Below the pieces are notes generated by a model, which saw only the letters and a program-made list of their open reading frames with translations, made no database searches and was not told the origin of the DNA. This document shows, one piece after another, positions 17,831-45,208 of a stretch of DNA of 64,000 nt. Position 1 is the first letter of the stretch, and the number at the start of each line of letters is the position of its first letter. The stretch is from Acutalibacteraceae bacterium (lineage in GTDB: Bacteria > Bacillota > Clostridia > Oscillospirales > Acutalibacteraceae). The DNA lies in contig JAZNAG010000104.1 in assembly GCA_045586405.1 (NCBI GenBank), positions 716 to 64,715 of the forward strand, given 5' to 3'. The position numbers and the translations under genes are program-made.

Positions 17831-17906
17831 TGGAGCGGATTACGGGGCTCGAACCCGCTACCTCCACCTTGGCAAGGTGGCGCTCTACCAGATGAGCTAA
17901 ATCCGC
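17831..17906 (-). tRNA. tRNA-Gly (anticodon GCC), encoded CCA
   Basis: The reverse complement is gcggatttagctcatctggtagagc...ccaccttGCCaaggtgg...ggttcgagc...tccgctcca. Confidence 0.9.
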
Positions 17907-17913
17907 AAAATTA

Positions 17914-17989
17914 TGGTGCCTCCGGTCGGAATCGAACCAACGACACGGGGATTTTCAGTCCCCTGCTCTACCAACTGAGCTACAGAGGC
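17914..17989 (-). tRNA. tRNA-Phe (anticodon GAA), encoded CCA
   Basis: The reverse complement is gcctctgtagctcagttggtagagcaggggactGAAaatcccc...ggttcgattcc...ggcacca. Confidence 0.9.
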
Positions 17990-17994
17990 AAAAC

Positions 17995-18071
17995 TGGCGA
18001 CCTGGATGGGGCTCGAACCCACGACCTCTAGCGTGACAGGCTAGCGTTCTAACCAGCTGAACTACCAGGCC
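17995..18071 (-). tRNA. tRNA-Asp (anticodon GTC), encoded CCA
   Basis: The reverse complement is ggcctggtagttcagctggttagaacgctagcctGTCacgctag...ggttcgagcc...gcca. Confidence 0.9.
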
Positions 18072-18078
18072 ATAAAAA

Positions 18079-18154
18079 TGGTGGGAACAATAGGGCTCGA
18101 ACCTATGACCCTCTGCTTGTAAGGCAGATGCTCTCCCAGCTGAGCTATGCTCCC
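18079..18154 (-). tRNA. tRNA-Val (anticodon TAC), encoded CCA
   Basis: The reverse complement is gggagcatagctcagctgggagagcatctgccttTACaagcag...ggttcgagcc...ttcccacca. Confidence 0.9.
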
Positions 18155-20312: not shown

Positions 20313-20399
20313 GCCGCTGTGGTGGAATAGGCAGACACAAGGGACTTAAAATCCCTCGGTAGCAATACCGTACCGGTTCAAGTCCGGTCAGCGGCACCA
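20313..20399 (+). tRNA. tRNA-Leu (anticodon TAA), encoded CCA
   Basis: Acceptor gccgctg/cagcggc. Anticodon loop ctTAAaa within gggacttaaaatccc. Long variable arm and GGTTCAAGTCC T-loop. Confidence 0.9.
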
Positions 20400-20533: not shown

Positions 20534-20562
20534 TTGTAATAAACTTAATGTTATGCTATAAT
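20534..20562 (+). promoter_or_regulatory. Candidate sigma-A promoter of the giant gene
   Basis: TTGTAA (20534-20539), 17 nt, extended -10 TGcTATAAT (20555-20562). RBS AGGAAG lies 6 nt before the ATG at 20601. Confidence 0.5.
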
Positions 20563-20600
20563 AAATTATCTATATTTTATTTTAGCGAAAGGAAGATTTT

Positions 20601-23600
20601 ATGAAAACACCACTACTGATGAAAATTTGTTCAGTACTTCTGGTCATCACTATGATGATTACAATGTGTCCCCTTTCTATATTTGCTATTGACGAGGAGG
20701 GTGACGAAGAAATCATCGAGCCGGTTGATGTTTATTCGGCCGATGACCTTGAAGAAGTTTTAGCAGGTGATGATGATTACATTCGTATTCTTAACGACTT
20801 CTATTTAGACAGAACGTTCTACATAGACCACAATGTAACCATTTATACCGAATCGGCAATAACCCTAACCCGTGCGCCTGAATTTGACGGCGACATTTTC
20901 ATTGTCGGCAAAAACAGCGAGGGTAATATTTGTGAAGAATCGGTTTCCTTAACACTTGGAAACAAAGATTCTGTCATATCCGACCTACTTACCATAAACG
21001 GTAATAGCGAAAATATGGCAGCCGAAGTAACAGGTACGGTTATTTTTGTTTGTGCAAATGCTAAAATAAATCTTTACGAAGACCTGACAATAACAAACTG
21101 TGTCAAGGTTGGCAATGACGAAACAATGACAGGTTTGCACACATTATCCTACCCTGCCCGTATAGGCGGTGCTGCAATTATTCTTGCCGGTAACAGTTAC
21201 GGTAACATTTACGGCGGTAAATACATTAACAACTCTGTAAATGATTTTACCGATGCTGATACCGATGAAGGCAGCGCTTCTACCCACGGCGGTGCCATTT
21301 ACAACTATGGTACCCTCAACGTTTACGGCGGTATATTCTCTAATAACCACGCCGGTCGTGGCGGTGCCTTCTACAACTATCGTGTTCTAAATCTTTACAG
21401 TGCTGAAATTACCGGCAATACCTCTTCTACCTTTGGTGGTGCTATTTATGTACCTAACAGTACCTCTGCATATACATATATTGGTGAAGAAAACGGTATT
21501 GGCGACAGTTTTGTTTCTTTCGGCGGCAACTCTGCTGAAGAAGGCGGCGGTGCTATATACGTCAAAAATGTTGCCACAGTAAAAAACACTTCCTTTAGTG
21601 ATAACAGTGCAGGTACATCCGGTGGCGCTATTTTCGCCCCTGCTATGGAGCTAACAGTTTCAAACTCAACCTTTGACAACAACATTTGTGCTACAAATGG
21701 CGGTGCTATATATCTTTCTGGTACCAACTCTACCGCAGGTAAAGAATTTACTGCAACCGAATCATCCTTCAGAAACAACGTTTCCCAAAGCAAAGGCGGT
21801 GCTATATACATAAAAGAAGCCTCTGCATATATGGAAAATGTCATTTTTGAAGCTAACAACAGTCCTTCCGGCGGTGCAATTTATTCTACAACCGCAAATA
21901 TTGATATAAATACCGCTACCATAAACGATAACACAACAACAGGCTATGGCGGTTTTATATACCTGGTTGAATCTTCTGTTGCAAAAATGAACAAAATCAC
22001 CGCAACAGGCAACATATCAAATTCTTCCGGTGGTTTCATATGTTCAAACGCTTCTACCACAACTATTTACGACAGTACCTTTGTTGGTAACAGATCTACA
22101 TCCTCAGCAGGTGCTATCAGCTTTAATTTGGACTCGGTTGGTAATGTATATAATTCTACCTTTGAGAACAATATCACCGGTGGTTCAGGTGGTGCAATTT
22201 TCATTTACACCAATGGTGTTGCCACCCCGACAATTATTCACAGCTGTACATTTTTAAACAACCAAGCAGGTTCAGGTGGTGCAATATACGCTTCCAAAGC
22301 AAGTATTGCCGAGCTTTATAATATTACTGCAAAAAATAACAGTGCAGATAAAGGCGGTTTCCTTTATATTACAACCACCAATACAACTTTATCCTTAGCC
22401 GGTATCTCAGTTTACGGAAATACCGCTTCTGTTGGTGGTCCTATTATTTGGGGTAACCTTAAAGCATCAATTCTTAAAATCGATAAAACAAAATATGTTG
22501 ATATGGGCAACTCAGGCGACTGGGATGACGCTTACTGGAGCGCCGCAATCTATAACTTAGTTACTGTTAAGGAAGCAAGCCTATCTATTCCTTCATACAT
22601 TGGTTATGACGGTAACGAAGTTATTCCTGAAGTTATTTCTGTTCCTGCAGAAGTTTCTACAGTTGCTGAGCTTGAGCGCGCTATAAACGCAGGTCACGAT
22701 TTAATTCGTATCACCAAGAGTTTTGAACTGGACCGTACCTTCTATATCAAAAATGATATGAACATTTTTGCAAGTTCTGCGGTAACCCTTACCCGTGCCG
22801 CTGACTTCGGCGGTGACATATTTGTAGTTGGCGAAACCGAAGACGGTACCCTTCTTGAAACTGCAGAAAACGATAGAATCGTTCTCTCAATCGGTAACAA
22901 GGAATCAAAAGAGAGCAATATGCTTGTAATTGACGGTAACAGAGACAATATGACTGTTACAGTTACCGGCTCGGTATTTTTCGTTCGTAAAAACTCACAG
23001 GTAGATCTATACGAAAACCTTTCTGTAATCAACTGCAAAAAGAACGGTAACAGCAAGACCTACAATTACACCGATACCGATATTTCGGGTTATCCTGCCA
23101 ATGTAGGCGGTGCTGTTGCAATTATGACAAGTGGCAGTTTGATGAACATTTATGGCGGTAATTACAAAAACAATGCTGTAAATAATACTGCCGATGCTGA
23201 TTCCCTTTCATCCTGGGGCGGTGTTATTTTCAACCATGGTACAGTTAATATTTATAGCGGTACTTTTGAAAATAACCACGCAGGTCGTGCCGGTTTTCTT
23301 TACAACTACCGTGTGTTAAATGTATATAATGCCACGATCAAAGGCAGTTCTGCCTCCTCTATGGGTGGTGCTATATATATTCCCGCTTCTACAGCTGCCT
23401 CTACTAATATCGGTACTGACAATGATTTGGTAGAAAGCCACGTAATCATTACTGAAAGTTCCTCTACCGGTAACGGTGGTGCTATATACGCTCAAAAATA
23501 CCTGAAAATTGAAAATGTTGAATTCAGCAAAAACACTTCGGGCGGAAATGGCGGCGCACTGTATCTTACAGGTACAAACGCTACTATCAGCAACACTGTT

Positions 23601-26600
23601 TTCAAGGAAAACTCTACTACATCTGATTCTTCCTATGGCGGCGCTATTTATCATAAAGATTCAAATACAAAAATTACCGGTGCCACTTTTGAAGGCAATA
23701 CATCTCCCTCCCACGGCGGTGCAATTTATACAACCGGTGCTATTGACACCAACGAGAAGGATTTAACCATATTCAGCTCCTCCTTTAATTCAAACAGCAC
23801 TAATGCAAATGGTGGTGCTATATACGTTTGCGGTTCTTCACGAATATACTCTGTAAAAACCAACTATAGTAGCAATAGTGCTACATCAGGTGGTGCAATT
23901 TACTCTACAAACGGTAACGTTGACGTTAATACATCTATCGTTAGAAATAACACCGCTTCCTCTGTTGGTGGATTTGTTGCAGTATATACAAATTCAACTG
24001 CCCTTTTAAATGCCATTGATGCTGAAGAGTGTTTTGCAAATACAGGTGGTCTTGTATATGTTAAAAACTCCGATTTAGAAATTTACAACAGCCATATTAA
24101 AATGTGTAGCGCTCGTACCACACACGGCGGTGCTGTATATGTAGAAACAGGCTCTAATGCCAAGTTTTATGCAAGTACTTTTGAAAATAATACCGCTGAC
24201 GATAACGGCGGTGCGCTCGCCCTATACAATGCCGGACTTTATAACCTCATTCACAGTTGTACCTTTATAGGTAACAGCAGTAATGTTTTGGGTGGTGCTG
24301 CATGGATTTCTAACGGTCCTACAGTTGATATTTACAATATCACTGCTAAGAACAATCACTCCGACAAAGGTGGCGCGCTCTACATAACCGTATCCGGTAC
24401 TGTGGTTAATCTTATCGGTGCTACATTCTCAGGCAATACCGCAACCACAGGCGGTCCTATTATCTGGGGTAACACTTTTAATGCTGTTCTCAATATTGAC
24501 AAGTCAAAATACACCGACCTTGACCATACCGGTGCTTATGACGACGCTTATTGGAGTGCAGCTATATACAACAAATTAACTGTTAACGAAACCACAGGTG
24601 AAGTTCCCAAATATCTTGACTACGGCAACGAGCCTTATGACCATATGAGCGATGCTGTTGACGTTAAGACCTGTGACCAGCTTGAAGCTGCTCTCAAGAG
24701 CGATGCAAAACATATTCGTATTATTTCTGACCTTATTATAGACAGAACTTTCTACATTGACAGAAGCGTAACAATATTCTCCACTGCCCCCTACGTCTTA
24801 ACCCGTTCACCCGAGTTTACGGGAGACTTCTTTGTTGTAGGCGAAACCGAGAATACAGTTAGTTCACTTGTTGATAACGGAAGAATTTTCCTAACCCTTG
24901 GTAACCCGTTATCTGTTAAAGAAGACCTTTTAACCTTTGACGGTAACTCTGCCAATATGAAAGAGACAGTTAAGGGTACAATTCTGTTTATAACCAGCAG
25001 TTCTATTGTTGAGTTACACGATAACATCACAATAACCAACTGTTACAAGACCGACAACGAACGAACCTACGAAACCAAATACAACCTGCCAAGATCTAAT
25101 CGTATCGGTGGTGCAGGTGCCATTATTCATAGTGGTACTCTTGATATTTATGGCGGTAATTACAGAAATAACAAAATTGGTGACGAAGACACTACTACTG
25201 CTGACGATTCAGGTAGAAATTCTTCCATCGGCGGTCTTATTTACAACTTCAGCAACCTGATTATACGCGGTGGTACATTTGACGGAAACACTGCTGCCCG
25301 CGGTGGTATAGTTTATAACTACCGTACCGTTAAAATTTACGGTGGTACCTTTACAAACAACCACGCTACCGTAAACGGCGGTGTTATCTATCAACCTAAT
25401 ACTGCTCCCGCACAATTGCGTATCGGTACTCAGTACAACGCCGGAGATTTCTCTGTATTATTTGAAAACAACACATCAGTTAAGCACGGCGGTGCAATTT
25501 ACACTTCAAGCCTTAGCTCTACTCTAATTAACGGTAATGTTACTTTCAAAAATAATAAATCAACTGAAGGTAGTGGCGGTGCTATTGCAATTTACGGTCA
25601 ATTAACCGCTACCGGTATTAACTTTACCGGCAACTCAGCTTATCTAAGAGGCGGTGCGGCTTATCTTGCCAACTCAAGCGACTCTTATGTAACAAGATTT
25701 ATTAAGTTTGACAACTGTAAATTCACAAGCAATACTGCACTACTCGGTGGTGCTCTGAATATCTTTGCAGGTTCTTCCTCTTTAAGTAACGGTGCTCAGG
25801 TTATCGTTAACAACTGTAACTTTAAGAAGAACACTGCCGCCAAGACATTCGACAGCCCCTCCTCTGCTTTTGGTGGTGCAATTGTTGCAGAAAGAAAATC
25901 CACACTTACTGTAACCGATTCAACCTTTACACAGAACAGTGCAGCAAACGAAGCAGGTGCAATTTACATCGCAGGTCAAAGTACTGCTACTATTAACGGT
26001 TCTACCTTCAGTTCTAACTTTATTGCCGAAGGTGGTACACACGGTGGTGCAGTAGTTGTACGTAGTTCTAAGCTTACTGCCGACAATAATACCTTCTCCG
26101 ATAACAAAGCTATTAACAACGGCGGCGCTGTGTATATTTCTTATCAGAGCGCTCAGGGTGTTAACTCTGATGTTAAAATTACAAATTCTATTATCAAGAA
26201 AAACTACGCCGGTGGTAATGCAGGTGCAATTTACGCTACCAAGATGACTGTTGAAAACGAAAAACGTATTCTTACTGTAAAAGATACTGAATTCAACGGT
26301 AACAGCGCCGAATCAAATGCAGGTGCCGTTATGTTAGCAACAGGTGTTGATGCCTTCTTTAAGAATGTTAAGTTTGATAAGAACTCTGCAATTACCGGTG
26401 ACGGCGGTGCGTTATTCACCTACGGCGCAATAATGACTTTTGAAACTGCAGAATTCAACGAAAACACCTCAACCGAAACCGGTGGTGCCATCCGCATTGA
26501 CGGTGCCGCTACCGCAACATTATACGATATCCTTGCCACCAAAAATGCAGCACAGACAAGCGGCGGATTTTTATTTAATGATTCCGGCGCTGTAAAAGTA

Positions 26601-29600
26601 TATGACAGTTCCTTCAAAAACAACTCTGCCAACGGCAACGGTGGTGCAATAACCGTTTACGGCGCCGGCACCAGCGAAATTTACGGTAGTGAATTTGTAG
26701 GCAACAAAACCACCGGTAATTCATCAAGTTCAAACGCCGGTGCTTTATACTTCGGCAGTGCTGAAAAGAATAACTTAGTTCACTCCTGTACATTTACAGA
26801 TAATAGTGGCTACTACGGTGGCGCAATATACGCTACCGGTAAGGCACAGGGTAGTTTCTACAATATTACCGCTACAAACAATAGCGCACAAAGAGGTGGC
26901 TTCTTCTACGAAACCACAACAGGTACTACCTTTAATATTGCAAGTCTTACCGTTTCGGGCAATACCGATGTTGAAGGAGCTCCGATTATTTGGGGCAACA
27001 GTTTTGGCGCAGTACTAAATATCGATAAATCAAAATACACCGACAAAGATGTAACTACTGCACTTGACGATGCTTACTGGGCTAAGGCAATTTATAACAA
27101 GCTCACAGTCAATTATGTAACATTGACTGTTCCAGCCTATACTGCTTATAAGCCTACGGAAGATAAAGTAGTTACTCCTACAGAAAAAACACCTGTACCG
27201 GTAACCGATGTTTTGAACTTAGCTCAGAACAGCACTGACGGATACATAAACTCTTATTATGATAAGTTAGAAAAGCTTGAGAACAATTCAAACTTCTTAA
27301 GTAAAAATACTGCGACCTTTGAAAATATCAACGGAAATACTGTAACGGTAGACACCTTTGTATACCCCTACAAGAGTGCTGCAGACAACTGTAACTTCAG
27401 TCAGGGTATTCTTATGTATCAGGCTATTCTCTATAAAGCAGCCCACCCCGAAGAAGAAGTTTATATTGATGTTGCTTCTTATCGTATGTCTGTTGCCGCA
27501 GCAGTTAACATTAACCCCAACAGCAGATACTACGGCTATATGAGAAATCTGCAGGGCAAAGAATACGACTCCAACGGTTTCGTACGCCTTGCTTATCTGA
27601 TGATTACTGCCGCAAAAATGGGTATTCACGTAAATGTTCTCGGTCATATAGACGGATATCCCGCTTACTCAAGTGACCCTAACCTTAATAAGTATTTCAC
27701 TAACAAGTTAAATGATCCTTGTGATCCCGCTTATGTTGAGAACGGTGTAATCGGCGATTATCTTGACTTTAATAAGTTCAACTGGACACTGGACAATAAA
27801 GGCGGAACAGATATGATGCACACAAAGATGTGCGCTGTTTCCCACTATCTTGACTGGAACGGTGTAGAACACAAAAATGCCGTTTGGTCATCCAGTTCTA
27901 ACCTTGACGGTATAAGAACTGAAGGTTGGAACGGTAACTATAAGTTACAGACCGCATCTATTGTTACAGGCCATGCTGAAATATACCGTACTGCAACCAA
28001 CTATCTGCGCTTAATCGGCAATTATAAAGAGCAGGAACAGGTTTACGAGTTCCACGAGCTTATAAGCCAGATGAATACATATCAGATTGATATGATAAAT
28101 GCAGGTCGCGGTGATGAAATACCTGAAGACGAAAGAATAGTTTATCTTGGCACCGAGTATGACAAGGTATTTGAGCTTTACTTTACTCCCTTCGGCGGTG
28201 ATCAGGTTGTTTGGGACGAAGAGCATAACCCCTACTGTAAATATCTGCGCAAAATGTATAATTCTGAAGATTATATTCTCTTCTCTTGGAATACTGCAGA
28301 ATACAACGGTGAATTCCCCTTAGGTAAGCAAATTGAAGATGTTATAACTTCTGCTTTCCACGATAACCGCAACCCAAACAACAGATTCTATGCAATAATG
28401 AACTCCTACAATTCTGCAAATATGTCCGATTTGAAGGTAGGAAAAGATATAGGTTTCTTCTCACTTAACAAGAGAGATTTCGGCTATATTCATAACAAGG
28501 ATATGCAGATGTCTTACGTAGAAAACGGTCAGCGTTACTATGTATCTCTGCTTAACTCCTGCAACGTACACTCCGGTTCTATGTGTTATCAGTCCAACTT
28601 TATGCTTGTTATTAAAGAAACTGATTACACAGAAAAAAGCGTATTCTTTAATCATGCAGAAAATACCACTACCGGTATTGTTGACCACGATTACGGCGAA
28701 GTGCTTGTAAAAGAAGCTGAGGAAAACAAACACGGCTATACTTATAAAACATGTCAGCAATGCGACAAGCAGATAATTCTTGATGAAGTTCACAATTACA
28801 GTGACTGGATAACCGACAGAGAGGTTACCTCTACCTTAAAGGGTATCGAGCACAAAGAATGTACTGTATGCGGTGAAATATTTGAAACAAGAGAAGTTGC
28901 TTTCTCTAAAGAAACTTCTATAGATACTTCTGACAGCGAAGGCAAATTCTTTACAACCGATACAAACTCACTTATTTCTGTACCCGAAAATGTAACCCCC
29001 TTAACCATTGAGGCAACCATTCAGGTTCCCAAAAACAGAACCAGCCGTGCAGGTGTAATTGTTGGTAACTACAAGAACTCATCTGTTGGCGAGTTCAACG
29101 TAGAAATTTACACAAACGGTAATTTACGTCTTTACTGTGTAGCCGGCAGCAAAATTATAAACACAATATTTGCAACCGACCTACGCTCAGACAACCCACA
29201 GCATATTGCTGTTACTATTGACTCAAATATTGCTACCCTTTATTTAGGCGGCGAAGCAGTAGAAACCAAAAAGTTAGTAGCTTCCCTTCCCGAAAATATG
29301 GCTGACTTTAAGATAGGCGGCGATAACAGAGAAGGCAACGCTCAGCACTTTAAATGTGCTCTGCACTCAATAGCTCTATTTAGCGATATCAGAACTCCGG
29401 ATGAAATTAAGCTCGATGCTATGTATGTAACAAATGATGCTGATAATCTCATTTACTCAGAATACTACTCAAAGCTCCAAAATTCTGAAACAGCATCAAG
29501 CAGCACACTTGAAGGTAAAACCTTCACCGGCAGAGATTTGTATAGCTTTGGCAGAACGTTTGCCGCTACTCCTCGAACAATTGAAGCAACCATTCTTGCT

Positions 29601-32600
29601 CCCAAGAGCATTTCTTCAAGAATGGGTGTTATCGTTGGTAACAATAACGGCAGTGATCCCTTCATCAACCTGGAAGTATATACCGAAGGTAAAGTTCGTC
29701 TGCTTTATAATGACGGTACTACTAAGACAACCCATACCTTCTCTGAGGATATACGTTCCGACTCCCCTGTCAATATTGCTGTTACCATGAGCGGAACTAC
29801 TGCAACTCTGTATGTAAACGGTATCAAAAAAGAAACCGCTACAGTCAGTGAAATCACTGCTAATATCACCAAAAACTTTGTTGTTGGCGGTGATAATACT
29901 CCCGGTAACTACAATTACTTCAAGGGTACCATTTACTCAGTAAATATGTTCTCTGATGCAAGAAGTGAGGCTGAAGTATTAAACGATGCTATCTTTGTTA
30001 ACAGTAAAGATGACAGTCTTTTAGCTTCTGTATACTTTACTTCAAAACAGACCGACAAGAAATTAACTGCCGTAAGCAACCTTGGTCAGACATTCAGTGC
30101 ATCAAAGCTCTACTCTACCGAAAAAACCTTTGATCAGCCTGCCAAAACCTTTGAAGCAGTTATAAATGTACCGAAAACTCTTAACAACCGTGCCGGTGTA
30201 ATCATCAGTAACTATGACGGTAGTTCTTCACCGCAGGTCAGCATTGAGGTTTACACTCAGGGCAAGGTAAGACTCTTCTATCATACAGGTAGCGCAAAGA
30301 TTGAGTATATATTCAGTAAAGATATTCGTTCTGCCGATCCTACACATATTGCTATTACTATAGACGATATGACAGCTTCTCTGTATGTAAACGGTGAATT
30401 TTCCGAATCCACTACCCTTACCCGCGCATTCCCCAATATTACCAGCGGATTGATGATAGGTAGTGACAACCGTAGCGGTAACTCCCAGTACTTCAAGGGT
30501 ACAATTTACTCAGCCGCTATCTTCTCCGATGTTCGTACAGCTGAAGAAATCAAGCAAGATTCACTTCTTGTTACAAACGATGCCGATGCCCTGCTCTACA
30601 GCGAATATTTCGCAAACGAAAATGACGAAGCATTTGTTATTGAACCTACAGGCAAAACCTTTACGGAAACTCTTGTTGGTATTGTTGGTTCTCTGAGCAG
30701 TGCTCCCAAGACCATTGAAGCCGATGTTTTTGTACCTGAAAATATCACTTCAAATGCCGGTGTTATTTTCAGTAATCGTTCAGATAGCACAGAAAATCAG
30801 ATTGGCATAACTCTCTGTGAAGACAACAAAGTACGTCTTGACTTTGTAAATGGCGAAGTATCACAGTCTTACCTATTTAGTTCTTCTGTTACTGCCGGTA
30901 AACTGACAAATGTTGCCGTTACCTTTAGCGAAAACACCGCAGCTCTGTATATTGACGGAAAACTCTGCGAAATTGCAACCTTAGATGCATATCTTCCCGA
31001 TATTGTACAGAACATTAAAATTGGCGGTGACAACCGCGTAGGTAACCCCGAATATTTCAAGGGTTCTATTTACTCAGTAAATATGTTCTCAGATGTAAGA
31101 AGTGATTCCGAAATACTTTCAGACTCTGTTGCAGTTTCTAAGTATGCCGATAATCTCATTTACTCTGATTACTATGTAATGAAGAAAAATGACGGTGTAT
31201 CATCCTCTACTCTTACTCCTGTCGGCTTCAATTCCACTCCTTCAAGTGAGTTTGAAATTACAGACCTGAATAGTTCTCCCTATACTATTGAAGCAACAGT
31301 AAAAGTTCCAAAAAGTATGGAAGACCGTGCGGGTACAATTATAGGCAACTATAAATCAGGTAACAGAACTCAAATGAACCTTGAAATTTACGACGGCGGT
31401 CGTGTTCGTATTTACTATGTTTCAAGTGCCGGTACTGTTGACTGTATCTTCTCTACCGACATACGCTCAGATAACGCCGTACATTTAGCTGTTACCCTTA
31501 AGGATAACACCGCTTCTCTGTACGTTAACGGCGTATTAGCCGAAACCAAGGCTGTAAGTTATATTTATGACATCCACGCCAAGAAGCTGAAAATCGGTAG
31601 CGATTTCAGACCTAACGATACTATGTATTTCAAAGGCACTATCTACTCAGTTAATCTGTTCTCTGAGGCTCGTACTGCAGAACAGATTGCAAGTGATATG
31701 CTTCTTGCCGCTCCCGTTACCGATTCTCTTATTTACTCTACTTACTTTGCTAATGTTACAAATCATTCTGATGCAACCGGCAGAACCTTCTCAAAGAATG
31801 AAATAAGTGAAATAGGAAATCTTGACAGCACGCCTTATACCTTTGAGGCTACCATCAATGTTCCTAAGTCGCTTAGCGGTCGTGGCGGTGTAATCGTAGG
31901 TAACTACGGCTCAGGCGCTAAATCTCAGATAAGCATTGAAATTTATGACGGCGGACGAATTCGTCTGTTCTATGTTGCTATGTCTAAGCGTACCGACTGT
32001 GTCTTTACAACCGATATACGTTCAAACGATCCTGTTCACATTGCAGTGACTCTCAATGGCAAAGTTGCTACACTTTATATTGACGGTGTTGCTACCGAAA
32101 GCATTACTCTGGACATTGACTACAAAATCACCACCGACAAGTTCACCATTGGTGGCGACAAGCGTTCAAACAACTCACAGTATTTCAAAGGAACTATTTA
32201 CTCTGTAGCTCTCTTCAGTGATGTCCGTACAGCTGAGGAAATTAAGCAAGATGTAAACGGCATCACCGATGGTACCGATTCACTTATTTGCAACAGATAC
32301 TTTAACTCTGAAATCTGTGAAGCAAGTGCAACCAGAGACGGTCATATTGCAAGTGACTGGATTATAGACAGCGTAGAAACCGCTACACTTTCAGGTGTAA
32401 AACACAAAGAATGTATTCGTTGCTCCAAAGTTCTTACTGTAAGTGATATTAAAACCAGCTTATATTACAGCAACCACATTGTAATTGCTGATATGAAGGG
32501 TAAAAAGCTTAGCAACGTTACAGATGCTTACGAAGTAAAAACCACACTTCCTTATGCACCTGTCACATTTGAAGTTTCACTCAACTTACCTTCCGGCTTC

Positions 32601-37818: not shown

Positions 37819-38464
37819 AAGTCATTTTTTCTTGTTTAACTTTTTTATCTATTATGTGACGAGAGGCAAGTTCGTTCTTAATATCCGAAACATTTATACC
37901 CATTTCCACCATCATTACCATTATATGATACATAAGGTCGGCAACCTCATATACCGTTTCGGCTTTATCGTCAGCCTTGGCAGCAATTATTACTTCGGTT
38001 GTTTCTTCACCGATTTTCTTTAAAATCTTATCAATACCTTTTTGAAACAGATAGGTAGTATATGAACCTTCAGGCAGTTCATTTTTTCTTTGTTTTAGTA
38101 AATCATACAGACCTTCGGTTGAAAAAGCATTCAACTCGTCGCTGTGCCAGATTTCATTAAAGAAGCAGGAATTTTCACCCGTATGACAGGCAGGACCGTC
38201 CTTTTTAACAACCACCGTTAAAGCATCGTTATCGCAATCGGCGGTAATTGATACAATATGCTGATAATTCCCACTTGTTTCGCCCTTGAGCCACAGTTCC
38301 TGTCTGCTGCGGCTATAAAAACAGGTAAGCCCTTTCTCCATAGAAATCATAAGACTTTCTTTATTCATATAAGCAAGGGTTAAAACCTCTTTTGTGTCAG
38401 CATCGACAACAATAGCAGGTATAAGCCCCTTTTCATCAAATTTAAGTTTATCAATACTTATCAT
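37817..38464 (-). CDS. hisI: Bifunctional phosphoribosyl-AMP cyclohydrolase / phosphoribosyl-ATP diphosphatase
   Basis: GLIPAIVVDADTKEVLTLAYMN...CHTGENSCF (HisI part), followed by a HisE-like C-terminal half. Confidence 0.9.
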   Translation of the reverse strand: MISIDKLKFDEKGLIPAIVVDADTKEVLTLAYMNKESLMISMEKGLTCFYSRSRQELWLKGETSGNYQHIVSITADCDNDALTVVVKKDGPACHTGENSCFFNEIWHSDELNAFSTEGLYDLLKQRKNELPEGSYTTYLFQKGIDKILKKIGEETTEVIIAAKADDKAETVYEVADLMYHIMVMMVEMGINVSDIKNELASRHIIDKKVKQEKMT

Positions 38465-39225
38465 TATTTTAACCTCACAATAATTCCGTTGTCATTAAGT
38501 TCTTTTTTCAAATCACTTATTTTAACTTCACCAAAATGGAAGATAGAAGCTGCCAGACCTGCATCAACACCCGGTAACGTTTTAAAAAGCTCAACAAAAT
38601 GCGCAGTATTGCCGGCTCCCCCCGAAGCGATAACAGGTACATTAACAGCATTGCATACAGCTTCTAACATTTCAAGGTCGAAACCTCCCTTTACTCCGTC
38701 GGTATCAATAGAATTAACGACTATCTCACCTGCGCCGTCATTAACGCCTTTTTTAATCCAGCTTATTGCCTCAATGCCTGTATCCTCTCTGCCGCCTTTG
38801 GCAAAGACGTGAAAACTGCCGTCAACTCGTTTTATATCAACAGACAAAACAACGCATTGGTCACCGTACTTTTTAGCAGCATTAGATATTAACTGAGGAT
38901 TTTTGATAGCGCCCGAATTAACACTGACTTTATCTGCGCCACATTTAAGTACTCTGTCAAAATCGTCAACAGTTTCAATTCCACCGCCTACCGTTAACGG
39001 TATAAAAATTTGCGAGGCAACCTCTTTTAAAATATCGGTAAAAAGTTGCCTACCCTCAAAAGAAGCTGTTATATCGTAAAAAACAAGCTCGTCAGCACCG
39101 TTTTCACTGTAATACCGTGCTAAATCTATAGGTGAAGAAACATCATTTAGTCCTTTAAAGTTAACACCCTTAACAACTCTGCCGTTTTTTACGTCAAGGC
39201 AAGGGATAATTCTTTTTGTTATCAT
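38464..39225 (-). CDS. hisF: Imidazole glycerol phosphate synthase, cyclase subunit
   Basis: MITKRIIPCLDVKNGRVVKG...IPLTVGGGI...VIASGGAG. Confidence 0.92.
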   Translation of the reverse strand: MITKRIIPCLDVKNGRVVKGVNFKGLNDVSSPIDLARYYSENGADELVFYDITASFEGRQLFTDILKEVASQIFIPLTVGGGIETVDDFDRVLKCGADKVSVNSGAIKNPQLISNAAKKYGDQCVVLSVDIKRVDGSFHVFAKGGREDTGIEAISWIKKGVNDGAGEIVVNSIDTDGVKGGFDLEMLEAVCNAVNVPVIASGGAGNTAHFVELFKTLPGVDAGLAASIFHFGEVKISDLKKELNDNGIIVRLK

Positions 39226-39935
39226 TTTGTTATCTCCACCGCCTCTTTAATATCAATGGCACCGGTGTAATACGCTTTACCTATTATAGCGCCGTATACA
39301 TCAATCTTATTCAACTCAATAATATCATTTATATCTGTTACTCCGCCTGAAGCGATTATGTCTAAGTTTAGTTCATTTTTTAACTTTCTATATAGGTCAA
39401 GGTTGGTGCCTTTCATAGCGCCGTCACGGGAAATGTCGGTGCAAATAATGGTTTTAACGCCGATACTTTGCATCTGTGTACAAAATTCTATACCGTCAAA
39501 CTCTGATTTTTCGGTCCAGCCCTTTATAGCAACCTTACCGTCTTTTATGTCTACACCGACAGCAATTTTGTCGCCGTATTTTTTTACAGCACTTAGCAAA
39601 AATTCTCTGTCTTTTACAGCGGCGGTGCCCAAAATCACTCTATTAACACCGGAACTGATATATGTTGCAACGGTCTCCATACTTCTGATGCCGCCGCCGA
39701 TTTCTATAAAAGCATCTGTTACGCTTCTTATTTTTTTTACGGTTTCAATATTAGGGGTATTACCATCCCTTGCGCCCTCAAGGTCAACAAGATGAAGAAA
39801 CTCTGCCCCGCTTTCTTTAAACTTTACTGCAATTTCTTCGGGATGGTCACTGTAAACCGTCATATTATTATAGTCGCCTTTATATAAACGGACAGCCTTG
39901 CCGCCGTAAATATCAATAGCAGGAAAAATTTTCAT
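39222..39935 (-). CDS. hisA: ProFAR isomerase
   Basis: MKIFPAIDIYGGKAVRLYKGDY...LHLVDLEGA...IASGGV. Confidence 0.9.
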   Translation of the reverse strand: MKIFPAIDIYGGKAVRLYKGDYNNMTVYSDHPEEIAVKFKESGAEFLHLVDLEGARDGNTPNIETVKKIRSVTDAFIEIGGGIRSMETVATYISSGVNRVILGTAAVKDREFLLSAVKKYGDKIAVGVDIKDGKVAIKGWTEKSEFDGIEFCTQMQSIGVKTIICTDISRDGAMKGTNLDLYRKLKNELNLDIIASGGVTDINDIIELNKIDVYGAIIGKAYYTGAIDIKEAVEITK

Positions 39936-39938
39936 AAA

Positions 39939-40553
39939 TTACTCTCCGTATTCACAAAACGCTTTTAAGATTTTAAGTCCAGTTTCACCGCTTTTTTCGG
40001 GATGAAACTGACAGCCGAAAATATTATCCTTAGCAACTGCGGCGGTAATATCTATACCGTATTCTGAGGTTGCAATAAGGCATTCCTCACATTCATTAGC
40101 AAAAAAAGAATGAACAAAATAAACACAGTCACCCTCGTTTATATATTTAAACAAAGGACTGTCCTTTATAAACTTTAGTCCGTTCCAACCGATATGAGGA
40201 ATTTTAAGGTTGGCAGGTATTCTTTTATCCATAGCTACTACCTTGCCCTTTAAAAGACCTAAGCCGTCGTGCTCTCCGTATTCGAAACTTTTTTCAAAAA
40301 GCATCTGCATACCAAGACAAATACCAAGAAGCGCCTTACCCTTTTTCACCTCGTCAATAATCACTTTATCAAGAGATAGTGTGCGAAGTTTTTTAATTGC
40401 ATCCTCAAAAGCGCCTACGCCGGGTAATACAATTTTATCTGCTTTTTTTATGGTTTCGGCATCACCGGTAACACAGATATCCAAACCAAGAGATTTAAAA
40501 GACGAACAAAGTGAAAAAAGATTTCCAACTCCGTAGTCAACAATTGCTATCAT
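39939..40553 (-). CDS. hisH: Imidazole glycerol phosphate synthase, glutaminase subunit
   Basis: MIAIVDYGVGNLFS...LPGVGAF...GICLGMQ...FHPEKS. Confidence 0.92.
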   Translation of the reverse strand: MIAIVDYGVGNLFSLCSSFKSLGLDICVTGDAETIKKADKIVLPGVGAFEDAIKKLRTLSLDKVIIDEVKKGKALLGICLGMQMLFEKSFEYGEHDGLGLLKGKVVAMDKRIPANLKIPHIGWNGLKFIKDSPLFKYINEGDCVYFVHSFFANECEECLIATSEYGIDITAAVAKDNIFGCQFHPEKSGETGLKILKAFCEYGE

Positions 40554-41140
40554 CAGAGAACTCCTTTAGTCGAGGGTATTTGGTTTTCAAAGCGTGTATC
40601 AATAGCCACTGCCCGTCTTAAGGCTCTGGCAACCGACTTGAATGCGCCTTCTGCAATATGGTGTGAATTTCTGCCGTCACGCTGTATGATATGTAAGGTT
40701 ATATCGGCATTTCTTACAAAAGAAACAAAGAATTCCTCAATAAGTTCACTGTCAAAGGTGCCTATTTTTTCGCTTCTGATATCAAGTTTATAGGAAATAT
40801 ACGGTCTGCCGGAAATATCAACGGCAGATTCAATAAGTGCCTCATCCATAGGAAGAAGCATTGAGCCGTAGCGGTTAATACCCTTCATATCCGAAAGTGC
40901 TTCCTTAAAAGCCTTACCAAGACAGATGCCTAAATCTTCAGCAAGATGATGATCGTCCACAAAAGTGTCTCCGTTTGCTTTAACGTTCAGGTCAAAACCG
41001 GAGTGACGGGCAAACAAAGTAAGCATATGAGTTAAAAAACCGCAAGGAATATCAAGTTTTGCTTTTCCCTCTCCGTCAAGATTTATACTGAGTTCAATTT
41101 GAGTTTCACTTGTATTTCTGTTTATAGAAGCTTTTCTCAT
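40553..41140 (-). CDS. hisB: Imidazoleglycerol-phosphate dehydratase
   Basis: RNTSETQIELSINLDG...DDHHLAEDLGI...GRNSHHIAEGAFKS. Confidence 0.92.
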   Translation of the reverse strand: MRKASINRNTSETQIELSINLDGEGKAKLDIPCGFLTHMLTLFARHSGFDLNVKANGDTFVDDHHLAEDLGICLGKAFKEALSDMKGINRYGSMLLPMDEALIESAVDISGRPYISYKLDIRSEKIGTFDSELIEEFFVSFVRNADITLHIIQRDGRNSHHIAEGAFKSVARALRRAVAIDTRFENQIPSTKGVL

Positions 41141-42204
41141 TTTACTTCCTCCTTAATTTCTTTTACAGTACTGATAAACTTTTTCATCTGTTTTAAAGTA
41201 CCTATGGTAATGCGGTTATAGTCGCAAATTTCTTTTGCCGAAAAATGTCGTATTAAAACGCCTTTGGCTTTAAGCCTTTTGTAAAGTTCCTCGCCGCCTA
41301 TCCAGTTACTTTTTGCAAATATAAAATTGGTTTTCGAATCAATAACCTCAAAACCTATTTCTTTCAGCGCATTTGCGGTAAAGGTGCGGTTTTCCATAAT
41401 CTTTTTGCACTTATCAACATAATAGTCGTTATCATCAATAGCAGCAGCGCCTGCCACTAAAGACAGTCTGTTTATGTTATAGGGATTGGTTGAATATTTA
41501 ATAAGTTCCAAATCCTTAATAATTTCTGCGTTACCGATTGCAAAACCTAGTCTGGCACCAGCAAGACAACGTGATTTTGAAAAGGTGCAACAAACAAGAA
41601 GATTATTATACTTTTTAGTAAGAGCAGTTGCGCTTTCACCACCGAAATCAACATAGGCTTCATCAATAAGCACAACATTATTTGGGTTTGATTTGACTAT
41701 TTCTTCTATTTGGTCAACAGACAGCGCAAGACCGGTTGGTGCGTTGGGGTTTGCAATAACAATAAATTTATTCTTATTAAGATAGTCCTTGTAATCAATA
41801 GAAAAATCTTTTTTAAGTTCTATTTCTTCGGCTTTCAGTCCGTAAAGCTGAGCAAAAACCTTGTAAAAGCCATAGCTAATCTTTGGAAAGGCTACCTCAC
41901 CCTTTTCTCCCGAAAAAGTCATAAAGGAAAAGTTAAGAATATCATCAGATCCATTTGCAAGATAAACGTTATCAGCCTTTACTCCGTAAAGGTTTGCAAT
42001 TTTTTCCTTAAGAACCTTAGCTGTCGGATCAGAGTAAAGCCTTAAGTTTTTTACTTCATTCTTGCTTACAGCTTTCAGTACCTTTTTTGATGGTGGGAAT
42101 GGTGATTCATTGGTGTTAAGCTTTACATATTTCATATCTCTGGGCTGTTCACCCGGAACATACGCGGTAAGACCACTGAATTTACTGTTTAAAAATTTAC
42201 TCAT
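41137..42204 (-). CDS. hisC: Histidinol-phosphate aminotransferase
   Basis: LNTNESPFPPS...NPNAPTG...TFSKS(R) PLP-lysine motif. Operon context. Confidence 0.9.
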   Translation of the reverse strand: MSKFLNSKFSGLTAYVPGEQPRDMKYVKLNTNESPFPPSKKVLKAVSKNEVKNLRLYSDPTAKVLKEKIANLYGVKADNVYLANGSDDILNFSFMTFSGEKGEVAFPKISYGFYKVFAQLYGLKAEEIELKKDFSIDYKDYLNKNKFIVIANPNAPTGLALSVDQIEEIVKSNPNNVVLIDEAYVDFGGESATALTKKYNNLLVCCTFSKSRCLAGARLGFAIGNAEIIKDLELIKYSTNPYNINRLSLVAGAAAIDDNDYYVDKCKKIMENRTFTANALKEIGFEVIDSKTNFIFAKSNWIGGEELYKRLKAKGVLIRHFSAKEICDYNRITIGTLKQMKKFISTVKEIKEEVK

Positions 42205-43481
42205 TTTTTATTCTCCGTACGAATAATTGCGCTTTTTGCATGGGCAGAAAGGCCTTCTTTTTCAGCAAAATAAGCAACATCTTGCGCAACCTTTTCCAGC
42301 GCTTCTTTTGTATAGTATGTATACTGAGTTTTCTTTACAAAGTCATCAACTGAAAGCGGGCTTGAAAACTTTGCTGTACCGCTTGTGGGTAAGGTGTGGT
42401 TAGGACCTGCAAAATAGTCGCCCAGTGCCTCAGGACAGTATTTGCCCATAAATACAGAGCCTGCATGACGTATACTGTCAAGATAATCAAATGGGTTATC
42501 AACACAAAGTTCAAGATGCTCAGGTGCTATTTCATTAGCTATATCTATTGCAACCTTCAGGTCATCGGCAACGATAATTTTGCCGTTATTATCAATAGAT
42601 GTTCTGGCAATTTCACTTCTTGGCAGAAGCGGAATTTGTTCTTCAAGCTGAGCAGAAACTTTTTTGGCAAATTCAATACTATTAGTAACCAGCACAGCGC
42701 TTGCCATTTTATCGTGCTCTGCCTGAGATAACAGGTCTGCTGCAATATAAGAGGGCTCACAGGTATCATCGGCAACAATCAGTATTTCACTGGGTCCGGC
42801 TATCATATCAATAGACACAGTACCATATACCTGCTTTTTGGCTTCGGCAACAAAGGCATTACCGGGGCCGACGATTTTATCAACCTTAGGTATACTTTCG
42901 GTACCGAAGGCTAAAGCCGCGATAGCCTGAGCGCCGCCCACCTTGAAAATACGGTCAACCCCTGCCACCTTAGCTGCCGCTAAAATAACGGGATTTACCT
43001 TTGAATCACTTGACGGCGGTGTTACAATACACAGCTCCTTTACACCTGCAATTTTAGCAGGGATACTGTCCATAAGCACAGTTGACGGATATGCGGCAGT
43101 ACCACCGGGCACATAAAGACCTGCGCGGTCAACAGGGATAACCTTCTGACCGATTACAACGCCCTGTTTATCGTTGATAATAAAACTGTTTCTCAACTGT
43201 TTTTCGTGGAAATTACGAATATTATCTGCCGCCGAGCGTAAAATTTCTATAAATTTTTCGTCTACGCTTTTTATAGCTTCTTCAATTTCTTCCTCTGTCA
43301 CCTCAAGACAGTCAAGATTAGCTTTATCAAATTTTAAAGAGTAACGGTAAAGAGCCTCGTCGCCATTTTCTTTAACATCGGCAAGTATCTCACTTACCAC
43401 ACCCGAAACATCTGTCTGAACATCACAACGGGAAAAAATCTCACTGTTTGGCACTTCGCCGTACTTTAATATCTTAATCAT
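42201..43481 (-). CDS. hisD: Histidinol dehydrogenase
   Basis: [16 protein letters not shown]...SQAEHD...[13 protein letters not shown]. Confidence 0.92.
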
Positions 43482-44109
43482 TATAACTCACCTGTTTAGC
43501 AAGGCCGGATTTTACAGCCTCAATTATATCTTTATTAAACTGATAACTTGCTTTGTTGGAAATTAGTCTTGCGCTTATAGGAACTATGGTTTCATAAGCA
43601 GTAAGATCATTTTCTGTAAGGGTTTTCCCCGTTTCAACTATATCCACAATTACATCAGAAAGTCCAAGTATAGGGGCAATTTCTATAGAGCCGTTAAGAT
43701 GAATAATATCAATATCACGGCATTTTTCTCTGTAATATTTAGCGGCAATATTTGAAAACTTAGTAGCAACACGCAGAGTTTTATCGGTATTATCTCTGAA
43801 ATCACGTTTTGCCGCAACTGCCATTCTGCATTTACCGATATTAAGGTCAAGCAGTTCATAGACATCGGGGCAGTATTCAAGCAAAATATCCTTACCTGCA
43901 ACACCAATATCTGCCGCGCCGCGTTCAACATATATTGCAACATCAGAGGGTTTTACCCAGAAATATCTAACCCCTGCTTTTTCGTTTTCAAAAATGAGCT
44001 TTCTGTTATTCTCTTTAATAGAAGGACATTCAAAACCGGCTTTTTCAAACATTTCATAAACCTTTTCGCCCAGTCTGCCCTTGGGAAGTGCAACGTTAAT
44101 CATTTTCAA
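43474..44109 (-). CDS. hisG: ATP phosphoribosyltransferase, short (HisZ-dependent) form
   Basis: 211 aa. INVALPKGRL...DIVETGKTL. Paired with hisZ upstream. Confidence 0.9.
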   Translation of the reverse strand: MKMINVALPKGRLGEKVYEMFEKAGFECPSIKENNRKLIFENEKAGVRYFWVKPSDVAIYVERGAADIGVAGKDILLEYCPDVYELLDLNIGKCRMAVAAKRDFRDNTDKTLRVATKFSNIAAKYYREKCRDIDIIHLNGSIEIAPILGLSDVIVDIVETGKTLTENDLTAYETIVPISARLISNKASYQFNKDIIEAVKSGLAKQVSYND

Positions 44110-45208
44110 TTGTTTTCACAAACTCCTTCCCGTTAAACTCATACGCTTTTTTGTAAATAAGGTTGCTTGGCAGTTTTTTGCATACCTTAACGGTTTCTCC
44201 GTCTTGTAGTAATTTTTCAATTAAACCAAACACGGCAGAAATATCACCGTTGTCAATAATTATTGTATCTACATCGTACTGTAAAGGTTTCTCTTTAAAT
44301 CTTTCAAGCTCGTCCAGATAAACAGCAAAGCCTATTGCAGAGCCTTTTTTACCCATTTTTCGCATAAGCTTATCATACTGTCCACCAGAGCATACTGTAG
44401 TGGGTATGCTGTTTACAAAGCCTTTGAAAACAATACCGCTATAATATCTCATACCGCCAACAACAGAAAAATCAACATTGAATTTATAACCGCGTTTTTC
44501 GGTAATTTTAAGTATTTCTTCAAATTCGTTAAATTCTTTTACGGCGGTTTCGCTTATAGCTAATTTTGAAAGTGCTGCAACAGCGGTTTTTATATCACTG
44601 AAATTTTCAGTAAAAATTGTCAGTCTTTCGGTATAATCGTCTAAAGACTTTTCCTTGCAAAACCACTTAATTCCGTCGGCATTTTTACTGCTTATAAGTT
44701 CAATAATTTCTTTTCTGTCACTGTCAAAAATTCCGATTTCGTCAAGTACGGCGTAAAGAAAACCTATATGAGAAAGCTGCATCATATAATCAGCATCAAT
44801 TACCTTAAGGCTTTCAAGGGCAAGATGAAGCACCTCGCAAACATCATAAAGTCCGATATCGCCTATACATTCAAGACCGGTCTGCATAATTTCTTTATAT
44901 GTATGCGATCTACCCGAAATACGATAAACGTTTTCATTATAGTAAACCTTTTCAACCTGCCCTGCTCTGTCATTAAAGTTGTTGATAATGGAAAGGGTTA
45001 CGTCGGGCTTTAAGGCAAGAAGCTTACCTGAAGTATCGGTAAATGTTATAACACTGTCAGAAATAAGAAAATCTTTATTCTTAACGTAAAGGTCATATTC
45101 CTCAAACTTATTCATTTTATAACGGCAGTAACCAAAGCGTCTGTATAATGCTCTCAATTTATATACAGACTCTTCATCATACTTTAAAAGTTTTTCGTCA
45201 ATATACAT
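44096..45208 (-). CDS. hisZ: ATP phosphoribosyltransferase regulatory subunit (HisRS paralogue)
   Basis: HisRS-like core without an anticodon-binding domain. First gene of the his operon; it overlaps hisG. Confidence 0.85.
   Translation of the reverse strand: MYIDEKLLKYDEESVYKLRALYRRFGYCRYKMNKFEEYDLYVKNKDFLISDSVITFTDTSGKLLALKPDVTLSIINNFNDRAGQVEKVYYNENVYRISGRSHTYKEIMQTGLECIGDIGLYDVCEVLHLALESLKVIDADYMMQLSHIGFLYAVLDEIGIFDSDRKEIIELISSKNADGIKWFCKEKSLDDYTERLTIFTENFSDIKTAVAALSKLAISETAVKEFNEFEEILKITEKRGYKFNVDFSVVGGMRYYSGIVFKGFVNSIPTTVCSGGQYDKLMRKMGKKGSAIGFAVYLDELERFKEKPLQYDVDTIIIDNGDISAVFGLIEKLLQDGETVKVCKKLPSNLIYKKAYEFNGKEFVKTIEND

Follow-up and report, generated by a model that had tools for sequence, protein, structure and literature searches.

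Organization of the giant gene

The window analyzed here, a stretch of 64,000 nucleotides from contig JAZNAG010000104.1 of Acutalibacteraceae bacterium (assembly GCA_045586405.1), carries on its plus strand a giant gene whose product of 4148 amino acids (aa) combines a Sec-type signal peptide, three tandem beta-helix modules, a central domain with the fold of the phospholipase D (PLD) superfamily, a mini-domain with four cysteines and seven LamG domains (Table 1). An initial annotation made from the sequence had described an uninterrupted open reading frame (ORF) with its own promoter-like element, ribosome-binding site and strong terminator, and each of these elements was located; the promoter was called as a match to the sigma-70-like consensus, which is no evidence of function. 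Since the promoter-like site and the ribosome-binding site lie upstream of the gene and a terminator-like hairpin lies downstream, the gene looks monocistronic. Its G+C content is that of its surroundings, and the origin by chance of a 12.4-kb open frame in DNA of 40% G+C is impossible.

A chimeric ORF, an ORF with collapsed repeats or a pseudogene not expressed as one protein was considered as an explanation, given that the source is a metagenome-type contig and that the gene is very repetitive at the protein level. At the DNA level, however, the longest intragenic repeats were 65–81 nt with 81–86% identity (none above 86% over 65 nt), and the three modules and the LamG copies are diverged from one another. 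Moreover, an independent Logan assembly (L085) contained a collinear allele of 4150 aa with 95% identity and the same synteny, the NCBI-derived record was identical to the window protein, and about 30 other species possess intact orthologs of 3000–4235 aa with an identical domain order. The gene is therefore real and not an assembly artifact, the probability of the latter being practically negligible, and the ORF is intact.

Table 1. Features of the giant gene and its flanks (positions are counted from the first nucleotide of the window)
Feature	Position	Strand	Basis or remark
Promoter-like site TTGTAA-17 nt-TATAAT, with TG extension before the -10 hexamer	20534..20562	+	10/12 consensus matches
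Ribosome-binding site AAGGAAG, 5 nt 5' of ATG	20589..20595	+	Read from sequence
Giant gene, 4148 codons and stop	20601..33047	+	ORF reading; exact protein on record from NCBI contig
Sec-type signal peptide, aa 1-29 (..LSIFA/IDEEG), without canonical lipobox	20601..20687	+	Sole hydrophobic segment
Beta-helix module 1, aa 37-682, Chlam_PMP GGA(I/V/F)(Y/F)/FxxN repeats	20709..22646	+	Pfam/NCBIfam
Allelic replacement patch 1, aa 267-690, C-terminal half of module 1	21399..22670	+	~72% DNA identity to other allele
Beta-helix module 2, aa 683-1352	22647..24656	+	Pfam and AlphaFold2 model
Beta-helix module 3, aa 1353-2196, longer through extra rungs	24657..27188	+	Pfam
Allelic replacement patch 2, aa 1950-2230, end of module 3 and linker	26448..27290	+	~85% DNA identity to other allele
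PLD-superfamily-fold domain, aa 2192-2696 (~505 aa), new sequence family	27174..28688	+	AlphaFold2, Foldseek and family profile
Lobe 1 motif H2407-x-K2409-x4-S2414 ... N2434-x-D2436	27819..27908	+	H, K, N, D invariant (84/84)
Lobe 2 motif H2631-x-K2633-D2634-x3-S2638 ... N2655, with E2673 downstream	28491..28565	+	H, K, D, N, E invariant (84/84)
Four-Cys mini-domain C2718-x2-C2721 ... C2754-x2-C2757, zinc-ribbon-like	28689..28895	+	Unit spans aa 2718-2757
LamG (Laminin_G_3) domain 1	28947..29444	+	Pfam
LamG domain 2	29514..30014	+	Pfam
LamG domain 3	30084..30587	+	Pfam
LamG domain 4	30651..31151	+	Pfam
LamG domain 5	31224..31724	+	Pfam
LamG domain 6	31779..32279	+	Pfam
Second, partial Cys motif (H..SDW...C3938-x2-C3941), between LamG 6 and 7	32268..32435	+	
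LamG domain 7	32508..33011	+	Pfam
Intrinsic-terminator-like hairpin, 17-bp stem followed by T run	33064..33101	+	

Fold and conserved residues of the central domain

The central domain (aa ~2192–2696) gave no sequence match in Pfam, NCBIfam or the Protein Data Bank (PDB) at E ≤ 10, either with phmmer or with hmmsearch using a family profile of 97 sequences. The AlphaFold2 model of the domain, built with the family alignment, was two-lobed (predicted local distance difference test (pLDDT) = 91.5, predicted template modeling score (pTM) = 0.90), and in the Foldseek comparison with the PDB all 50 listed matches were chains of the PLD superfamily (probability 1.0, best E-value = 2 × 10−11), while 67 matches had E ≤ 0.001. 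The top matches were 7e0m, identified through a literature search as the PLD of Serratia plymuthica (SpPLD), PLD3/PLD4, PLD1/2, PPK1, vaccinia F13, Tdp1 and Streptomyces PLD. The bilobal alpha/beta fold with pseudo-twofold symmetry that is required of a PLD-superfamily member was thus recovered both in the model and in the Foldseek comparison. This bears out the two-lobed PLD-like domain with two HxK motifs that had been read from the translation, and the segment-wise structure prediction followed by Foldseek, as had been advised, supported this reading.

Nine residues, namely, H2407, K2409, N2434 and D2436 in the first lobe and H2631, K2633, D2634, N2655 and E2673 in the second lobe and downstream of its motif, were invariant in all 84 family sequences compared, whose identity ranged from 36% to 89%. 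In the AlphaFold2 model, both H-x-K..N motifs were located on strand-hairpin-strand elements at equivalent positions of the lobes. The spacing from H to N was 24–27 residues versus 17 in the canonical motif HxK(x)4D(x)6G[ST]xN, from which both lobes retain H, K and the final N. An exhaustive search of 1.84 billion representative proteins with the HMMER family profile returned 205 matches, 120 of them at E ≤ 1 × 10−30. Five of ten tested members from the weakest end of the family passed the gathering score of PF13091 (PLDc_2), which provides a transitive sequence bridge to the superfamily. Membership of the PLD superfamily is therefore supported by the fold and by this profile bridge, the motif being a variant. 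According to the modeled fold and the conservation of residues, the central domain is very probably an active, although divergent, phosphodiesterase or phosphotransferase of this superfamily.

Distribution of the family and its linkage to beta-helix proteins

About 100 homologs of the PLD-like domain with 36–50% identity were found, nearly all of them "hypothetical" proteins of ~560 aa encoded in metagenome-assembled genomes (MAGs) of Clostridia and containing no Pfam domain. In a survey with one genome for each GTDB species, 80 loci were recovered; with the exception of one Anaeroplasmataceae MAG, they belonged to MAGs of uncultured gut Clostridia, and the family was not seen in any cultured organism. 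The carriers were assigned to Acutalibacteraceae, Oscillospiraceae, Faecousia, Ruminococcus and Christensenellaceae, and the hosts of these MAGs included ruminants, deer and rabbit. The closest relatives of the window domain were from Acutalibacteraceae (89% and 85% identity).

The same giant fusion, with beta-helices followed by the PLD-like domain and one to seven LamG domains, was found in approximately 30 species-level MAGs or loci (3000–4235 aa), and giant versions of up to 5223 aa were present in the representative protein library. All PLD-like sequences with at least 50% identity to that of the window were fused, whereas those with 44% identity or less were split, except for L058. Wherever the upstream DNA of a split locus could be read, the PLD-like gene came immediately after a homologous beta-helix gene on the same strand, at a distance of 0–25 nt or with an overlap. 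Fused or adjacent linkage was observed in the 80 genome loci and in further loci, wherever upstream DNA existed. In the reverse test, four of four beta-helix homologs, chosen by similarity to module 2 alone, were followed by a PLD-like gene (676–714 bits). The pairing was kept by a distant PLD-like relative of 480 aa and was not kept by a relative from Spirochaetia. The beta-helix and the enzyme with the PLD fold are regarded as obligate partners, fused in one clade and encoded by adjacent genes elsewhere.

The initial annotation, in which no characterized protein with this combination had been recognized, had recommended assessing how widely the full architecture occurs. The architecture is indeed uncharacterized, but it is not a singleton, as follows from the species-level MAGs with the same fusion. 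No characterized or named homolog was found, the relatives, including the distant PLDc_2-positive ones, being labeled "hypothetical" in all sources, and searches of the literature on PLD and beta-helix in Clostridia, on dockerin and phospholipase D, and on Chlam_PMP and Laminin_G_3 yielded nothing relevant. A tblastn search of phage and plasmid collections with the PLD-like domain gave no match, so an origin from a phage depolymerase or a mobile element is unsupported.

Beta-helix modules and allelic mosaicism

Three tandem modules with repeats of the Chlamydia Pmp type, predicted earlier to form parallel beta-helices, were each matched by Chlam_PMP (PF02415) in the Pfam scan that had been proposed (E = 3 × 10−26, 2.4 × 10−25 and 3.3 × 10−28, i.e., at most 2.4 × 10−25 in all three), as well as by the POMP repeats of TIGR01376 in NCBIfam (E from ~1 × 10−18 to 1 × 10−21); modules 2 and 3 were additionally matched by Beta_helix (PF13229). 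The modules range from 646 to 844 aa, share 39–45% protein identity in pairs, and each has its own N-cap and a C-terminal cap "..GGPIIWGN..DDAYW..LTV". The AlphaFold2 model of module 2, obtained with 62 aligned sequences, was an all-beta right-handed helix (pLDDT = 94.3, pTM = 0.93), in agreement with the prediction. Foldseek matched this model with generic beta-helix proteins only (template modeling (TM) score 0.2–0.4, E ≥ 1 × 10−5), including PL6 alginate lyases, phage tailspikes, Ag43, PfbA, pertactin and rhombotarget A. Thus, the modeled beta-helix fold can be regarded as certain, but it does not allow assignment to any particular family of enzymes or adhesins.

Comparison of the window protein with the L085 allele revealed 225 differing positions, of which 214 fell inside two patches (Table 1), whereas the remaining ~3400 residues contained 11 differences and the DNA outside the patches was ~99.9% identical. 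The best match of each patch was the same position of the other allele and not another module; for this reason, intragenic gene conversion was ruled out and the patches, judging from the sequence comparison, are attributable to recombinational replacement. They point to surface variation driven by recombination, and the mosaic fits an exposed, diversifying beta-helix surface accompanied by conserved enzyme and lectin parts.

Cysteine motifs, LamG array and export of the window protein

The cysteine motifs, described initially as short and degenerate, were present; the first of them, however, is a conserved four-Cys mini-domain, which occupies the position next to the C-terminal end of the PLD-like domain in 26 of 28 listed fused proteins and which gave zinc-finger-like Pfam matches, all below the threshold. 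A Cys/His/Trp mini-module of the same kind, "C-x-HEYGEW..T.EATC", was observed directly after the lipobox Cys of the beta-helix lipoproteins of L001, L002, L047, L054, L061, L068 and L076.

Seven LamG/ConA-like jelly-roll domains had been counted from the translation, and seven Laminin_G_3 domains were delimited by Pfam; the scores for PF13385, one of the models suggested for checking, were 165 and 239 bits, above the family cut-off of 27.6. The copies were 32–51% identical in pairs, and a PDB search with LamG 3 gave a single weak match, namely, the S-layer domain protein 4qvs (E = 0.024).

The signal peptide read from the translation agrees with the hydrophobicity of the protein, in which aa 1–32 (MKTPLLMK-ICSVLLVITMMITMCPLSIFA|IDEEG) form the only hydrophobic stretch, with a candidate cleavage site at ..SIFA|ID. 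The regular-expression search of the window protein detected no LPXTG, RTX, YD or choline-type motif, no C-terminal transmembrane segment was found, and the Pfam scan revealed neither SLH nor dockerin, in accordance with the absences noted at the outset. A lipoprotein anchor is unlikely, as ITMC is not a canonical lipobox. The window protein thus carries none of the named anchor signals (LPXTG, SLH, dockerin, choline-binding, lipoprotein) and falls outside the anchored class. The LamG array might hold the protein on the producer's own wall or, alternatively, might target the enzyme to a glycan-decorated surface.

Architectures and anchors of related proteins

The split PLD-like proteins were predicted to be exported, as they contained signal peptides or lipoboxes, and many short stand-alone PLD-like proteins and their beta-helix partners both had lipoprotein signals. 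In the long split form, the PLD-like protein had the order signal peptide, PLD-like domain, Big_2, LamG, Metallophos, fn3, and SLH or dockerin, and was encoded after a beta-helix protein of 2000–3250 aa. In these long two-gene systems the beta-helix partner had no anchor of its own, and the PLD-like partner possessed SLH or dockerin. Since relatives are exported with lipoprotein signals, SLH or dockerin, the family is probably composed of extracellular enzymes that are usually tethered to the cell surface, as far as can be judged from sequence signals.

Five complete giants (L013, L018, L020, L031 and L082) ended in a GDSL/SGNH esterase (..DGLHP..AGH..) instead of the final LamG domain, and the stand-alone PLD-like proteins P0005 and P0018 carried a GDSL/SGNH fusion too. 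In the giant architectures and in those of the Metallophos type, LamG occurred together with the PLD-like domain; it was missing from the short stand-alone forms. The PDB search with the Metallophos domain of the sister proteins was empty, and in NCBIfam this domain gave sub-threshold matches to cyclic-nucleotide phosphodiesterase and PdeM only.

Neighboring genes

The giant gene is flanked upstream by a tRNA-Leu gene and downstream by a DUF1538 fragment of 85 aa. The tRNA-Leu(taa) gene (20313–20399), directly upstream, has its own promoter-like site and terminator, and four tRNA genes (Gly, Phe, Asp and Val; 17831–18154, minus strand) are located 2 kb further upstream. The 85-aa ORF (33195–33452, plus strand) matches the first ~60 of the 211 positions of the DUF1538 model and is followed by a terminator-like hairpin (33451–33472); this ORF also occurs in the independent assembly L085 and represents either the remnant of a gene or a conserved mini-protein. 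A 993-aa ABC_tran-FtsX fusion protein (34802–37783, plus strand) is encoded two genes downstream of the giant gene. In L092, ABC and FtsX genes flank the beta-helix/PLD pair; the association was seen in few loci and may be coincidental. The hisIE gene (PRA-CH and PRA-PH; 37817–38464, minus strand) was identified by its domains, and after it, within 37817–45208 on the minus strand, eight ORFs of the same strand have sizes fitting a histidine biosynthesis operon, in which the identity of hisIE alone was checked.

Beyond the beta-helix/PLD pair, no conserved neighbors (transporters, immunity, secretion or sortase genes) were found across the loci. A gene for an Acyl_transf_3 membrane acyltransferase adjoined the pair in about seven related loci (L002–L004, L047, L054, L068 and L073). 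In L086 (2858–3721 and 9454–11040), an Acyl_transf_3 gene was located upstream of a distant pair, with genes for a multi-pass membrane protein and a TMEM164-like protein downstream. Such neighbors may hint at modification of a cell-surface polymer.

Putative function and alternative explanations

The interpretation held with somewhat better than even confidence is that the window protein is a Sec-exported extracellular enzyme-adhesin and that the family forms a cell-surface phosphodiesterase complex processing a phosphodiester-containing polymer. In such a complex, the three consecutive right-handed beta-helices would form a long rigid stalk or a polymer-binding surface, the central domain would cleave or transfer a phosphodiester, and the seven LamG jelly-rolls would serve as a multivalent glycan-binding array. 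In the proposed reaction, H2407 or H2631 would attack the phosphodiester, producing a phospho-histidine intermediate, the other invariant histidine would protonate the leaving group, and the phosphate would be bound by the Lys and Asn pairs. Among the putative substrates, a phosphodiester-bridged glycopolymer (teichoic-acid-like, capsular or phosphoglycan) is favored, followed by membrane phospholipid and then by nucleic acid; the host-glycan, mucin or biofilm target suggested in the initial annotation is speculative. Two arguments placed the glycopolymer first, namely, that both the beta-helix and LamG belong to the classical carbohydrate-interacting folds and that the SGNH and Metallophos domains fit polymer de-esterification and dephosphorylation; the fusion of these two domains in relatives fits a stepwise breakdown of an esterified phosphodiester polymer. 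Nucleic acid was ranked last because the acidity of the family (median pI 4.9) and the accessory domains argue against it.

Several observations weigh against this interpretation. No Pfam PLD model (PF00614, PF13091 and others) matched the window domain even at E ≤ 10, so the hmmscan with PLDc_2 that the initial annotation had suggested failed on the window protein itself. The TM-scores of the Foldseek matches were modest (0.38–0.53), and the canonical Asp of HxK(x)4D (+7) is Ser or Thr in both lobes, an Asp-less variant of the HKD motif comparable to that of Tdp1. The beta-helix, which matched generic helices only, may be a passive stalk or a further enzyme of its own, and the window protein, having no anchor, may simply be released. 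No conserved neighbor gene, such as a transporter or a regulator, points to a pathway in the 30 giant and ~50 two-gene loci. The PLD, SGNH and Metallophos groups each include members acting on lipids, nucleic acids and glycopolymers and do not discriminate among the candidate substrates. Finally, the functional interpretation draws on predicted fold and on sequence.

Tentatively, and with much less confidence, the pair may be regarded as a previously unrecognized two-component surface machine of uncultured gut Clostridia, in which a new "HKS" branch of the PLD superfamily would require the beta-helix as a platform for binding its substrate and would depolymerize phosphodiester-bridged glycopolymers (teichoic acids, capsules or phosphoglycans) of neighboring microbes or of the host. 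SGNH esterases and Metallophos phosphatases would assist in this process, and the enzyme would be, at the same tentative level, a PLD-based "teichoicase" or phosphoglycan depolymerase. Remodeling of the producer's own wall polymers by the PLD-like/beta-helix pair is an alternative. A contact-dependent phospholipase D is considered unlikely. In this case, the beta-helix and lectins would bind a target cell (host epithelium, a protozoan, a fungus or a rival bacterium) and the PLD domain would hydrolyze its membrane phospholipids, acting as a cytolysin or releasing head groups such as choline. True phospholipases (7e0m, PLD1/2 and Streptomyces PLD) are indeed among the closest structural matches, several relatives carry a fused GDSL/SGNH domain of the lipase type, and PLDs can be used as weapons, as are the Tle5 PLD effectors of the type VI secretion system. 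Foldseek, however, rates nucleases, kinases and lipases equally, no conserved immunity-like gene stands beside the pair, and many stand-alone members are lipoproteins on the producer's own membrane, which would be awkward for an attack on membranes.

A PLD-type extracellular nuclease that, similarly to Nuc or PLD3/4, would degrade environmental DNA or RNA at the cell surface, with the Metallophos domain of the sister proteins as a nucleotidase, is distinctly improbable. The PLD3/PLD4 exonucleases were among the top structural matches, and the recurrent Metallophos fusion resembles the nuclease and nucleotidase pairs that Gram-positive surfaces carry. This assumption is opposed by the acidity of both the domain and the family (pI ~4.9–5.0, with few conserved basic residues), by the absence of a nucleotidase-specific match for the Metallophos domain, and by the obligate beta-helix and the LamG and SGNH fusions, which have no obvious role with nucleic acids. 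Of equally low probability is a purely structural or adhesive protein, in which the PLD fold would be a non-catalytic binding or docking module for the beta-helix protein. The missing HKD Asp, the mosaic allelic replacement in the beta-helices, suggestive of an exposed variable surface antigen, and the long two-gene systems, in which the unanchored beta-helix protein is paired with a PLD-like partner bearing SLH or dockerin, would fit such a role. On the other hand, both partners are lipid-anchored separately in the short systems, and invariance of the His, Lys and Asn set in both lobes across 84 sequences with identity down to 36% is hard to reconcile with a loss of catalysis.

Significance of the family and comparison with known systems

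The PLD-like family, a small and isolated sequence-orphan branch of a well-studied superfamily, has no coverage in Pfam, NCBIfam or the PDB; it amounts to ~200 representative clusters in a set of 1.84 billion proteins and merits a new domain model. Its fused and split forms make it a Rosetta-stone case for an interaction between beta-helix and PLD proteins. Beta-helices of the Pmp type are usually labeled "adhesins" with no function attached; should the pair prove to be an enzyme complex, it would offer a first clue to the function of Pmp-like beta-helix proteins outside Chlamydia, as well as a new extracellular phosphodiesterase activity for herbivore and human gut Clostridia.

Assignment of the window protein to Pmp proteins or other type V autotransporters was rejected because the Pfam and NCBIfam scans revealed no translocator barrel and the C-terminus is a LamG array, the repeat type alone being shared. 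A polymorphic toxin or contact-dependent inhibition system was rejected as well, since the enzyme lies inside the protein and is highly conserved and since the 30 giant and ~50 two-gene loci have no downstream gene in common.

The Pmp proteins of Chlamydia and the AIDA-type passengers resemble the window protein in the GGA(I/L/V)/FxxN repeats, the right-handed parallel beta-helix and the strain-level mosaic variation. The window protein differs in that it has no autotransporter beta-barrel, is encoded by a Gram-positive-type Clostridium, and consists of three complete, capped helices in tandem, followed by an enzyme domain and lectins. A right-handed beta-helix is also shared with PL6 alginate lyases, tailspike depolymerases and the adhesins Ag43, PfbA, pertactin and rhombotarget A, to which the matches were weak and generic; no catalytic signature of a lyase or hydrolase family was identified in the modules, and this comparison holds at the level of the fold. 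The N-terminal lectin domains of sialidases and the C-terminal domains of trans-sialidases have the PF13385 fold in common with the LamG domains of the window (secondary matches PF02973, PF22925 and PF08787), whereas the window has seven tandem copies with the signature "..IGGDNR.GN.QYFKGTIYS..FSD.RT..EI", and solved LamG modules include no close homolog of them, the best being the above-mentioned 4qvs.

With the PLD (HKD) superfamily, represented by 7e0m, PLD3/PLD4, Streptomyces PLD and PF13091, the central domain shares the two-lobed fold and an H-x-K ... N motif in each lobe. It differs from the superfamily in the lack of a direct profile or PDB match, in the replacement of the motif Asp by Ser/Thr, in a longer hairpin, in extra elements within its ~505 aa, and in its coupling to a beta-helix protein. 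The nearest system is the split sister architecture with Metallophos, which has the same PLD-like family (36–44% identity), the same beta-helix partner and a LamG companion; unlike the window protein, which is fused and has neither a second phosphoesterase nor an explicit anchor, the sister form is encoded by two genes and has both. In its mode of action, the window protein would resemble a PLD-superfamily enzyme placed on a Pmp-like beta-helix, and the family to which it belongs is real, recurrent and uncharacterized, with an unusually strict two-component linkage.

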